Source: Octopus sinensis (Eukaryota). From it: a stretch of DNA of 31,365 nucleotides. A model generated the notes under the pieces. That model saw only the letters and a program-made list of their open reading frames with translations, did not search any database and had not been told where the DNA came from. The translations under genes and the position numbers were made by a program. The stretch is taken from NCBI RefSeq assembly GCF_006345805.1, contig NW_021832185.1, positions 1 through 31,365 on the forward strand, given 5' to 3'. Below, piece by piece: positions 7,904 to 26,102 of the stretch. Numbering within the stretch: position 1 is the first letter of the stretch; each line of letters opens with the position of its first letter.

Positions 7904-8082
7904 ATATATGTGACAATTATTCGGTACCATGATAAAACTCCGAGTTTCGGATGTCGAGGGGAAACCCACGCCGCCATCTCTTCAGTTATCGGGCCATCGA
8001 AAAAAAGATGGCGGCGTGGGTTTCCCCTCGACATCCGAAACTCGGAGTTTTATCATGGCCACCGAATAATTGTCACATATAT
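7904..8082. mobile_element. Near-perfect ~76-bp-arm inverted repeat, probable Penelope-type inverted pseudo-LTR pair
   Basis: 7904-7979 is the reverse complement of 8006-8082 except at one site; contains a hammerhead motif. Confidence 0.75.
7931..7990 (-). ncRNA. Type I hammerhead ribozyme motif
   Basis: Minus strand: GATAA (stem I) - CTGAAGA - GATG...CATC (stem II) - C GAAA - CTCGGAG TT (short stem III, GUU site) - TTATC (stem I). Confidence 0.75.
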
Positions 8083-9763: not shown

Positions 9764-10081
9764 GTGAAGGCGCGTGGCTTAGTGGTTAGGGCATTCGGCT
9801 GACGATTGTAAGGTCGTCAGTTCAATTCCCGGCGACGAGTTGTATCCTTGAGCAAGACACTTTATTTCACGTTGCTCCAGTCCACTCAGCTGGCAAAAAT
9901 GAGTTGAACCTGTATTTCAAAGGGTCGGCCTTGTCACACTCTGTGTCACGCTGAGAACTGCGTTAGGGGTACACGTTTCTGTGGATTGCTGAGTCACTTG
10001 CACGTTAATTTCACGAGCAAACTGTTCCGTTGATCGTATCAGCTGGGACCCTCGTCGTCGTAACCGACGGAGTGCTCCTCT
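9764..10081 (+). mobile_element. SINE family B, full length, with target-site duplication
   Basis: A box tggcttagtgg, B box gttcaattccc, CORE-like tccttgagcaagacacttt; flanked by tattatgacctaa (9751-9763) and tattatgacgtaa (10082-10094). Confidence 0.9.
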
Positions 10082-15572: not shown

Positions 15573-15805
15573 ATATGAGAAACGAAGATAAATATAAGTT
15601 TATATTATAGTCCCCAGGCGCGTTTCCCCATTATGGTTGTTTGGAGCCCTGCAATATGTGTTTCTTGTGTATTTAGGGGACAAAATTCAAAGAATGTGCA
15701 CCTCATTCCCATAATGGACCTCTTCGACACCTATTTTATTTGGGTGGACCCTCATAGCCAGTCGATGTTTAAAAGAGACCTCATTGTATATCTATAATTA
15801 ATTAT

Positions 15806-16242: not shown

Positions 16243-16872
16243 AAATTATTAAGAATTTATAGATATATGAGAGAGTCGTCATACAAAGAGCTGAGTGTAT
16301 CGATATCGTATCTTTCAAATTCCAGTGGCATTTATTTAGCGCGCTTCTGTTTAATCAGTATCTCTTCTGCCTAGCATTCTTCCAATGTTCCATTGAACCA
16401 GATAATGCTACAATTCCCTGCATCCTAATGCATTTTTATTTCTGTCTTGTTCAGAGTAAAGACAGCCACTCCATTGCTTGGTAACCTGGACGACGTTGGA
16501 CCCGTCACACTTTTGACTTACGGCCATTATTTGGTATGGTTGCTTGTAAGGAATTCAAGTGCAAGCACATTGGCGTTAGAAGTAACACCTTGTCAGGGCA
16601 CTATTGTATGCACCATAGATAAGGAAGACTGAAAACATCCACAACGTGGACGTATCTCGGCTCATTTGAGGATTTGCCACAAAGTAGCAGCTTGTCGGTA
16701 CTGGATAGACATTGAGACTTACAGTCAACTGGACAACTTATAAAAATGGCGTTCAACGACTTTTTTGTCTTTTGCTATGGACCTCTTTGATCCTTATTTT
16801 ACGCGGGAGGACCCTCGTAGTCTTTCGATAATCAAACGAAACTTTATTGTATATATTTATAATTTAAATATT

Positions 16873-16987
16873 ACAGTTCTATATTCAAGGATATGGCGTA
16901 GTGGTTAAGAGCGCGGGCTGCTAATTATGAGTTCTACTCCAGGCAGTGACCTGAATGATGATAATAATATTAATAATAATAATAATG

Positions 16988-17042
<55 letters not shown>

Positions 17043-17209
17043 CAACAACAATAACAACATCGAAAAATACCCTAGGAATGAGAACCCAGGTTCGAAATTC
17101 CCCCAAGACACCCGACGAAGGCTGGAAGTCATATCAGCCGAAACGTTGTGTTAGCAACAAACAAGATGAGGACAAATATCCGTCAAATGTAAATAATGTA
17201 AATAATGTA
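16873..17209 (+). mobile_element. ORF-less Penelope-derived unit: short inverted end, tRNA-like head, (AAT)n, hammerhead motif, aatgtaaat tail
   Basis: Collinear with 25716-25996; A box TGGCGTAGTGG at 16894-16904; flanks taatttaaatatt / taattaaatatt look like a TSD. Confidence 0.85.
17107..17152 (+). ncRNA. Minimal type I hammerhead motif with one core change
   Basis: GACAC-CCGACGA-A-GGCTG...CAGCC-GAAACGTT-GTGTT; core U4 is C; palindromic AACGTT stem III as in Penelope hammerheads. Confidence 0.7.
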
Positions 17210-18267
17210 ATTAAATATTATTAGGAATTGTAGAAAAAATATTGGAATATTTTGTGTATTGTAGAAGTACGAGAACCAATTTATTGAACATAAATTTTAA
17301 GAACCACATCTTGTATGGACTCCAGTTGAGAGCCACTGACCCAGAAAATGGAGAATATATCTGCGTGGCGGATTTATTTTTCTTCCCTTAGGGTTTCCAA
17401 TAACCACACGCATTAGCACGTAGACCTGGCTATGTTGCTCGTTTATCCACTGCTAACGGCCCGACCTCATTCAGGTTGTATTGGCTTACACGATTACTTG
17501 TAGTTGATCTCTATCTAGAGATATATATGATCTTAATTGTCTGTGACTTTTCCACTTCAAAATCCCCTCGATATTTATATACACTATATTCTTCTTACAT
17601 CTCTTTCTTGGACTACCTCTTTCTCTCTTTCAATCTCTTCCTCTGGCCTTCCCCTGCAAAGTTATGAATAGCTACCCCCGGCAAGCTACGGATTAGTTAT
17701 AACCTCCTGTCAACCCTTACGACCACATGTGACCTAGCAACACCATACCCACATTACTACCATCACCACCACCACCCACCACCACCACAAATACACGTAA
17801 ATCTCGAAAGCTCCTGACACAGAACAAGATATGTCACACTATGTAGCGTTATAGACACAGTCGTCACACAGAACCACCCAGAATACCTTCTCACACAACA
17901 CCCTCCCCATATTTCTACATTTGAGTAGACAATCTTATGCGAAGCCCCTCCTTCTATACACTCACATACACACATGTACAAATATTATATATATATATGA
18001 TGTGTGTCTGAATAGACCTATATATATATATACATATAGACATATATGCACACACACACACGTATACTCATACGCACCCATATGGGTGTCTTTGAGTGTA
18101 CCTATCTATATATCCATATCTGTATATATGTATGTACATATATTCATACATGCATACATACATACATACATACATACATACATACATACATACATACATA
18201 GATACATACATGCATATATATATATAATATATATATATATGATATATATATATACACATGTATGTAT

Positions 18268-22204: not shown

Positions 22205-22590
22205 GGGATGGAAGCACTCCGTCGGTTACGACGATGAGGGTTCCGGTTGATCCGAATCAACGGAACAGCCAGCTCGTGAAATTAACGTGTAAGTGGCTGA
22301 GCACTCCACAGACACCGCACCCTAACGTAGTTCTCGGGATATTCAGCGTGACACAGAGAGTGACAAGGCCGGCCCCTTGAAATACAGGTACAGGAAAACA
22401 GGAAGTAGAGTGAGAGAAAGTTGTGGTGAAAGAGTACAGCAGGGATCACCACTATCCCCTGCCGGAGCCTCGTGGAGCTTTTTAGGTGTCTTCGCTCAAT
22501 AAACACTCACAACGCCCGGTCTGGGAATCGAAACCGCGATCCTATGACCACGAGTCCGCTGCCCTAACCACTGGGCCATTGCGCCTCCAC
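22205..22590 (-). mobile_element. SINE family B long variant, full length, with TSD
   Basis: Flanks tgtgatgatatt (22193-22204) and tgggatgatatt (22591-22602); A and B boxes in the head. Confidence 0.92.
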
Positions 22591-23328: not shown

Positions 23329-24053
23329 CATTTTGGGGGGAGGGAACCAGTCGATTAGATCGACCCCAGTACGCAACTGGTACTTAATTTATCGACCCCG
23401 AAAGGATGAAAGGTAAAGTCGAACTCTGCGGAATTTGAACTCGGAACGTAAAGACAGACGAAATACCTATTTCTTTACTACCCACAAGGGGCTAAACACA
23501 GAGAGGACAGACAAGGACAGACAAACGGATTAAGTCGATTACATCGACCCCAGTGCGTAACTGGTATTTATTTAATCGACCCCGAAAGGATGAAAGGTAA
23601 AGTCGACCTCGGCGGAATTTGAACTCAGAACGTAGCAGCAAACGAAATACCTATTTCTTTACTACCCACAAGGGGCTAAACACAGAGGGGACAAACAAGG
23701 ACAAACAAAGGTATTAAGTCGATTACATCGACCCCAGTGCGTAACTGGTACTTAATTTATCGACCCCGAAAGGATGAAAGGCAAAGTCGACTTCGGCGAA
23801 TTTGAACTCAGAACGTAACGGCAGACGAAATACCTATTTCTTTACAGGGGCTAAACACAGAGGGGACAAACAAGGACAGACAAACGGATTAAGTCGATTA
23901 CATCTACCCCAGTGCGTAACTGGTATTTAATTTATCGACCCCGAAAGGATGAAAGTCGACCTCGACGGAATTTGAACTCAGAACGTAACGGCAGACGAAA
24001 TACGGCTACGCATTTCGCCCGGCGTGCTAACGTCTCTGCTAGCTCGCCGCCTT
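23329..24053 (-). mobile_element. Head-to-tail tetramer of SINE family C (one head, three C1 bodies, one C2-tailed body)
   Basis: Junction aaatacctatttcttt at 23461, 23645 and 23828; periods of 184, 183 and 170 bp; single head at 24000-24053. Confidence 0.93.
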
Positions 24054-25290: not shown

Positions 25291-25387
25291 ATGTCGCTAT
25301 ACGTTCCTTCCTTCGAAGATGTTTTGGTTTACAGTTCTATACTTAAGAGATGAGGAATTATGTACATTATTTACATTATTTACATTA

Positions 25388-25684
25388 TACAAAGGTGAAA
25401 CATGCCACCCCCTCAAGATAAGGGTAGACGAACATCGCAAAGCTGTGACACAAGGAGACATTCATAAATCGGGTATAGCTGATCATGTGTGGAAAAATGG
25501 AAACCACCTCCCTCTGTGGGATGAAGTTAAAATAATAGACAGAAAACACTACTGGAAAATACGAAAACTAAATGAAGCAGCACATATGCTAGGACACAAC
25601 AACCTCCTAAGCAGACCGAGTGCAGATATGGGCAGCATATGGGAACCGGTACTAAGGAAGGATAGGAGAATATTAGATTTATAA
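25388..25684 (+). pseudogene. GIY-YIG endonuclease C-terminal portion of a Penelope-like element
   Basis: YKGETCHPLKIRVDEHRKAV...KSGIADHVW...HLPLWDEVKIID...RKLNEAAHM matches Y.G.T.R.L..R..EH...S.IA.H...H...W....I...R...E..I. Confidence 0.92.
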
Positions 25685-25902
25685 GCCCTAAAATTCACTC
25701 CATAATTGCCCACTGGCATATGGCATGTTTCACCTTAAGAGCGCGGGCTACTAACCCCAAGATTCCGAGTTCGATTCTAAGCAGTGACCTGAACAATAAT
25801 AATAATAATAATAATAATAACAATAATAATAATAATAATAACAACAACAACAACATCGAAAAATACCTTAGGAATGGGAACCTAGGTTCGAAATTTCCCC
25901 AA

Positions 25903-25948
25903 GACACCTGAAGAAAACTGGAGGGTATATCAGCCAAAACGTTGTGTT
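25903..25948 (+). ncRNA. Degenerate hammerhead motif in the Penelope 3' repeat
   Basis: GACAC-CTGAAGA-aaactg...cagcc-AAAACGTT-GTGTT; G12 is A and stem II is partly broken. Confidence 0.6.
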
Positions 25949-26102
25949 TACAACAAACGAGATGAGGACAAATATCCGTCAAATGTAAATAATGTATGTT
26001 TTAGTTTGTGTTGCACTTGCTAATCAGTATTTACCATGCTTAAGGCGACGTGTAGTGTTCTTGAGCAAGACACTTCATTTCACGTTGCTCGAGTCTTTCT
26101 TT

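Follow-up and report, generated by a model that had tools for sequence, protein, structure and literature searches.

A decayed Penelope terminal repeat in Octopus sinensis and its tRNA-derived head, a likely RNA polymerase III promoter

The insert at positions 16873-17209 of the window (the whole 31,365-nt stretch of Octopus sinensis DNA analysed here) is a dead, decayed two-armed pLTR copy of a Poseidon-type Penelope family, and its identity as a pLTR is near certain. This family encodes its own enzymes, and its terminal repeat starts with a tRNA-derived head that likely serves the short copies as an internal Pol III promoter and probably does so for the entire element; we give this reading as a whole a probability of roughly 0.6. 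Taken separately, the proposal that the head would act as a working Pol III promoter is strongly favoured. The fullest form of the model stands at about an even chance: an autonomous coding element of ~2.9 kb that would be transcribed end to end by Pol III from a captured tRNA promoter, that would have purged its ORF of terminators and that would act as its own SINE.

The initial annotation had described the insert as an ORF-less unit with a tRNA head, an (AAT)n tract and a hammerhead, and had proposed a SINE- or retrozyme-like RNA mobilised by Penelope machinery. It is partly supported: what it observed was mostly right, and what it made of these observations was half right.

The window insert and its target site

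The motifs named beforehand are all present in the insert, at their positions. The insert starts on the minus strand (16873..16890) with a reversed tip, ACAGTTCTATA.., which recurs at 25331. The inverted terminus that the two elements had been said to share is thus real, and it is the family's own 3' end in reverse complement, an ordinary Penelope feature; this inverted tip of the Penelope tail (the 'long' end) constitutes the second arm of the insertion. All the remaining parts are on the plus strand. The tRNA-derived pLTR head (16891..16955) starts 3 nt before the A box (16894-16904) and includes the anticodon-loop-like CTGCTAA (16918-16924) and a damaged B-box-like motif (16931-16940). It is followed by an (AAT)n/(AAC)n microsatellite (16956..17058, with (AAT)n proper at 16961-17054), the length of which varies throughout the family. 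The A box and the (AAT)n tract were found exactly where they had been placed. Downstream, positions 17078..17209 correspond to codons 1-44 of the Penelope ORF, so that 'ORF-less' does not strictly apply. These codons include a minimal type I hammerhead motif (17107..17152, predicted cut after 17147) and the 3' end of the pLTR (17153..17209), which terminates at the 'short' end point.

The window copy has diverged from the family by 7%, and its head has lost 8 nt. The position of the B-box-like motif was confirmed, but the A/B-box pattern failed in this copy whereas the family passed it. Similarly, the hammerhead motif is present but its core is mutated: it reads CCGACGA, with a T at the second place in 93% of copies. 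When ARAGORN and Rfam were applied to the insert, neither a tRNA nor a hammerhead was called.

The suggestion that the insert interrupts a hAT-like MITE was upheld. Alignment to other MITE copies delimited a left part (16744..16872, plus strand), with a decayed left TIR near 16744-16758, and a right part (17210..17338, plus strand), with its TIR at 17325-17338. MITEs of the hAT type carry short TIRs beginning with CAG, an 8-bp TSD and no ORF. Since the ends of this MITE are CAGTG..CACTG and one clear copy (L066) is flanked by an 8-bp TSD that contains a single mismatch, the host was classified as hAT-like. Empty-site comparison located the target-site duplication of the insert itself at 16862..16872 on the left (10 bp and one extra T) and 17210..17219 on the right, both on the plus strand. 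Among 11 other host-MITE copies, six displayed a single ATTAAATATT between both flanks, two had their own insertion at that point and three could not be resolved. Thus the flanks of six copies are joined across one ATTAAATATT, which bears out the TSD of the initial reading and sets its length at 10 bp. Insertions recur at this point of the MITE (16862-16872), which is a hot spot: in L067 it is occupied by an independent copy of the same Penelope family, with a different structure, and other repeats break the MITE there in L064 and at ~15800 of the window (15790-15800).

A coding Penelope family with a tRNA-derived head

A 25-mer from the tail had 4,148 exact matches in the genome (control: 0), which suggests an estimated ~2x10^4 family fragments when decay is allowed for. 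The scripted consensus contains an intact 834-aa ORF, the ATG of which directly follows (AAT)n. The hammerhead and tail therefore constitute the first codons of the ORF. Indeed, in some copies the tail continues straight into coding sequence, and the N-terminal 44 codons resemble the start of a protein that comes from another source and is 56% identical (E 4e-05). Walking upstream from the endonuclease led to a reverse transcriptase (PF00078, RVT_1; E 3e-08), and the family has a GIY-YIG-like C-terminus, so the part of the initial proposal that invoked Penelope machinery holds. A Pfam search with the 97-aa endonuclease fragment of the window gave no GIY-YIG match; homologues of the ORF carry PF00078 and, in some, PF01541.

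In copies selected through the endonuclease, an A or B motif directly follows the stop in 32 of 38 cases (39 loci requested, one without ORF end; two are repeats of others). The tRNA-derived head also lies upstream of the ORF start in ORF-bearing copies. The overall layout is head-(AAT)n-ATG/hammerhead/tail-RT-EN-stop-22 nt-head; in other words, a pLTR made of head, (AAT)n, ATG, hammerhead and tail is present at both ends of the element and overlaps the ORF start. Judged from its sequence, by all structural features tested, this is an EN+ Penelope-like element (PLE) of the Penelope/Poseidon type, a clade name that is based on motifs. The hammerhead consensus of the family combines a CUGANGA/GAAA core, an extra base before helix II, a G10.1-C11.1 pair and a palindromic 15.2-16.2, with helix III absent; these are the features of minimal type I PLE hammerheads as described in PMC4209133.

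The window holds a second copy of the family (25331..25996, plus strand), with a 12-bp TSD containing one mismatch. It consists of an inverted tail (25331-25388), an endonuclease fragment (25391-25684) and a small inversion (25721-25736), then a head remnant, (AAT)n, hammerhead and tail. The inversion is a 16-bp piece of the endonuclease (25392-25407), reversed just inside the head, where it replaces the A box; we read this as a template switch at the edge where 5' ends usually lie. Elsewhere in the genome, another LINE-like element often lies within the (AAT)n tract of the family or is joined to it (L010, L021, L053, L056, L098, L099), which suggests a retroelement targeting (AAT)n.

The tRNA origin of the head was assessed against 20 distinct own-genome tRNAs from 30 loci, a set containing no Ser tRNA. 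The best match of the family head was tRNA-Arg(TCT), with z=7.3 vs shuffles, in line with the derivation proposed at the outset. CTGCTAA does occur as first reported, yet it is a minority variant (about 10 of 117 short copies) and the family reads CTACTAA. An origin from Ser(GCT), considered on the basis of CTGCTAA, is disfavoured for this reason. The head was also tried as a foldable tRNA gene, and this was rejected (z 0.93; no call by ARAGORN). In the family consensus, the A and B boxes are intact and 45 nt apart. The A/B-box pattern search, used with a positive control, retrieved none of 80 related control loci (metagenome contigs) on the sense strand. Unrelated A-box/B-box heads of the ordinary tRNA-SINE type are also present in the window, at 9775-9830 (plus strand) and near 22578 and 21002 (minus strand).

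If short units formed an independent, non-autonomous SINE or retrozyme family parasitising Penelope enzymes, as the initial annotation had supposed, they might be expected to differ from ORF-bearing copies. ORF-poor short units with TSDs are indeed the commonest form, and schistosome hammerhead SINEs and PLE-derived retrozymes offer precedents as far as these have been described. A tRNA-SINE would form a separate lineage with a head absent from its partner, whereas here the head is built into the ORF-bearing partner. The same consensus and variants were common to 117 short and 80 ORF-linked copies, with no diagnostic difference, and there is thus no separate SINE lineage in this sample. The CTGCTAA variant of the short copies could be viewed as a mark of such a lineage, but its excess is confounded because the window copy was the search query. 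Head-to-tail tandem units with at least two hammerheads were seen neither in the window copy nor in the copies inspected, which are single or inverted pairs. An independent family is therefore largely refuted and in our opinion very improbable.

5' ends, T-runs and transcripts

The 5' ends were mapped, as had been advised with the initial annotation, on the first 100 position-ordered tail matches of contig C1, a sample unselected for 5' ends. While 22 copies start after (AAT)n and 25 within it, 53 reach the head; 14 of these 53 begin within the head and 25 between -24 and +1 relative to the A box, and the other 14 continue into the ORF (four of them extending past the reference end). Expressed per 1000 nt at risk, 5' ends amount to 37.4 at -24..+1, against 5.5 within the head and 1.6 in the ORF (p 7e-9 and 3e-18), the peak window having been picked after the data were inspected. 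A stricter two-strand alignment retained 68 fragments with an anchor at +8..+30. Among them, 54 start at -15..+8, including 10 at -15..-13, and the other 14 start at -101 or beyond, leaving none at -16..-100; one copy starting at -47 has no such anchor and hence falls outside this set. The ends thus form a peak at the head, with an abrupt edge 14-15 nt ahead of the A box.

Copies containing the ORF start were analysed in a set of 60 with a tail-ORF junction (56 fetched of 57 exact matches and 5 earlier loci, duplicates dropped). The same 5' edge is respected by 17 of their 21 head fragments and passed by four. Since 14 of the 53 tail-selected and four of the 21 ORF-start head fragments lie beyond the edge, longer RNAs (tandem or read-through) must also be copied, which counts against the Pol III reading. 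Many copies with the tail-ORF junction also seem to stop 40-270 nt into the ORF (L488-L513, L458-L487); these internal stops may mark breaks in the alignment or additional RT start sites.

The edge falls on the 5' side of a 5-bp hairpin (-14..-3), and fold-back palindromes centred there are frequent. Rotifer pLTRs, for which no tRNA head is reported in the available text, also begin at palindromes (PMC3846280), so that Pol III is not the only explanation for a sharp edge at a hairpin. The head could then be a passenger, an old fragment of a tRNA-SINE with no promoter role, and the edge could result from fold-back of the cDNA on the hairpin or from a Pol II start as in other PLEs. The palindromic starts of the rotifer elements fit this explanation (PMC3846280, as far as described there). 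It is difficult to reconcile with the many edge copies that are joined to flanking DNA without fold-back, and with the consensus A and B boxes, which are intact, normally spaced and at a normal distance from the edge. We consider a passenger head quite unlikely. On the preferred reading, Pol III would start at about -13/-14 relative to the A box.

Metazoan Pol III terminates at runs of at least four T on the non-template strand. The 2,622-nt consensus contains no TTTT on the sense strand, compared with a mean of 2.95 in synonymous shuffles (P 0.027; other nulls, P 0.005-0.022). In real copies (49, each of at least 1 kb), 23 T4 runs were counted in 74.3 kb, i.e. 0.31/kb. Controls came from 80 related loci in metagenome contigs, 55 of which had an ORF of at least 300 codons: all 55 ORFs contained T4, at 3.04/kb in the 27 whose T content was similar. 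A search of the genome for a second Poseidon family as a further control returned 20 loci, all 20 of the same family. Another, distant Penelope-like family of the genome served as control (L303-L327; ~25-33% protein identity, inverted ends and a hammerhead-like core near the 3' end). It has 8 T4 runs in 1.8 kb, and no tRNA head was seen in it. In the consensus ORF, A5 runs are also low (9 vs 14.1 expected, P 0.024), and part of the T4 loss may thus reflect general avoidance of homopolymers. We regard the T4 depletion as indirect but specific support for the idea that Pol III would read the whole ORF.

The labour might instead be split, the head serving as a Pol III promoter for short SINE-like RNAs only, while Pol II or host-gene read-through would supply the full-length RNA. 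Short copies do dominate the exact matches (4,148 in the tail vs 582 for the sequence directly preceding the head and 57 for the tail-ORF junction), and copies crossing the edge require a longer RNA. Such a division also agrees with known limits of Pol III, whose processivity is regarded as too poor for autonomous elements, an argument against Pol III transcription of the whole element (PMC10886601, in the text available). It leaves unexplained the tenfold loss of sense-strand T4 over the 2.5-kb ORF, as well as the same 5' edge in copies with the ORF start, and we find it rather unlikely. The strand-specific T4 loss is not accounted for by a passenger head either.

RNA reads came from three runs, all produced in a single study on a related organism. 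Their depth mirrors genomic copy number, with equal mate directions; in run X21 it was about 1,700 over the pLTR and below 25 over the 5' part of the ORF. Moreover, 75-87% of the reads continue into unlike sequence. In these three runs, which do not distinguish polymerase or strand, no discrete transcript start was detected at the head; that no Pol III transcript was seen in them fits a passenger head. Promoters of characterised PLEs resemble Pol II LINE promoters (PMC2377424, as far as reported there), which also counts against Pol III.

Insertion mechanism and comparison with known elements

The 3' ends are bimodal, with two points about 26-33 nt apart that correspond to the optional tail of PLEs. 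An inverted arm was found in 52 of 97 non-redundant tail matches (two-armed copies from L031-L060 and L133-L202). Their arms pair as long/short in 25 cases, short/long in 23, short/short in 3 and other in 1, never as long/long (p 1.5e-11); the window copy is short/long. A TSD was detected in 37 of the 52, being 11-15 bp long in 29. For the green anole element PAc, two internal RT start sites and extension of both strands are reported (PMC11167929, in the text available). The long/short pairing matches these two start sites and two-strand extension, and we infer that both arms are primed on one RNA. The strict pairing provides genomic support for priming of the arms at two RT start sites known in vitro.

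In the mechanism that we propose from these sequence features, Pol III would read across the terminator-free ORF, whereas a transcript begun in a solo repeat would halt at the first T-run of the flank. The endonuclease of the element would nick both strands of AT-rich target DNA, and the two arms would be primed by the RT on a single RNA, one at either tail site. After running off the start of the RNA, the cDNA would either form a fold-back at the 5-bp hairpin there or be linked to the other arm through microhomology. Short copies would thus be SINE-like in behaviour, yet represent the element's own front end.

The closest counterparts are the Penelope/Poseidon PLEs PAc of the green anole (PMC11167929) and Pen2a_Av of rotifers (PMC3846280). 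As described in the available text, these share with the present family a single ORF of about 830-840 aa with RT and C-terminal endonuclease, a pLTR overlapping the ORF start with the hammerhead located there, an optional ~30-nt tail on one inverted pLTR, an inverted 5' arm, AT-rich targets and short TSDs. Unlike here, no tRNA-derived head or Pol III promoter is mentioned in these portions of the two papers. Penelope of D. virilis also differs, in that a LINE-like internal promoter with a DPE and an intron are described for it (PMC2377424, partial text).

A Pol III promoter derived from a small RNA within the terminal repeat of a retroelement is known from TRIMp3 elements (Helenus, Ajax and Cassandra; PMC10886601, partial text). 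Those are non-coding LTR elements of 0.3-1.3 kb, whereas the present repeat is that of a coding Penelope, and the same source argues, in its available part, that the autonomous partners of TRIMp3 must use Pol II. No tRNA-headed coding PLE was found in the open literature; a prior description is possible in Repbase, Dfam, SINEBase, subscription papers or supplements, which were outside the scope of the search. Pol III promoters are thought to be limited to short non-coding retroelements, and a coding Penelope that has a tRNA head and an ORF devoid of terminators would, if true, break this rule. It would also offer one route by which a SINE may originate from its own partner element, and would raise testable questions on how an uncapped RNA is translated and on what role the PLE hammerhead plays.

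Schistosomes harbour hammerhead SINEs known as Sm-alpha and Sj-alpha, of which Sm-alpha is of tRNA origin. These SINE-like elements likewise consist of a short retroposed unit in which a Pol III promoter precedes a hammerhead (PMC6765202, partial text). They differ in being non-coding and often tandem, with a canonical active hammerhead, and in the available text they are not presented as a coding element's terminal repeat. Animal non-LTR retrozymes are also short hammerhead units related to the pLTRs of PLEs; according to the accessible text (bioRxiv 10.64898/2026.07.22.740005; PMC7761336), they are defined by tandem repeats and circular RNA, whereas the copies described here are single or head-to-head and have a fixed 5' edge.

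Two further features of the window were observed. A long inverted repeat lies at about 7920-8066, with a match resembling a hammerhead core on the minus strand near 7985. Finally, a tandem array occupies 23349-24003 (3.6 copies, 89% alike, of a 184-bp unit), and this unit presumably represents a common retroposon 3' end, which it resembles.
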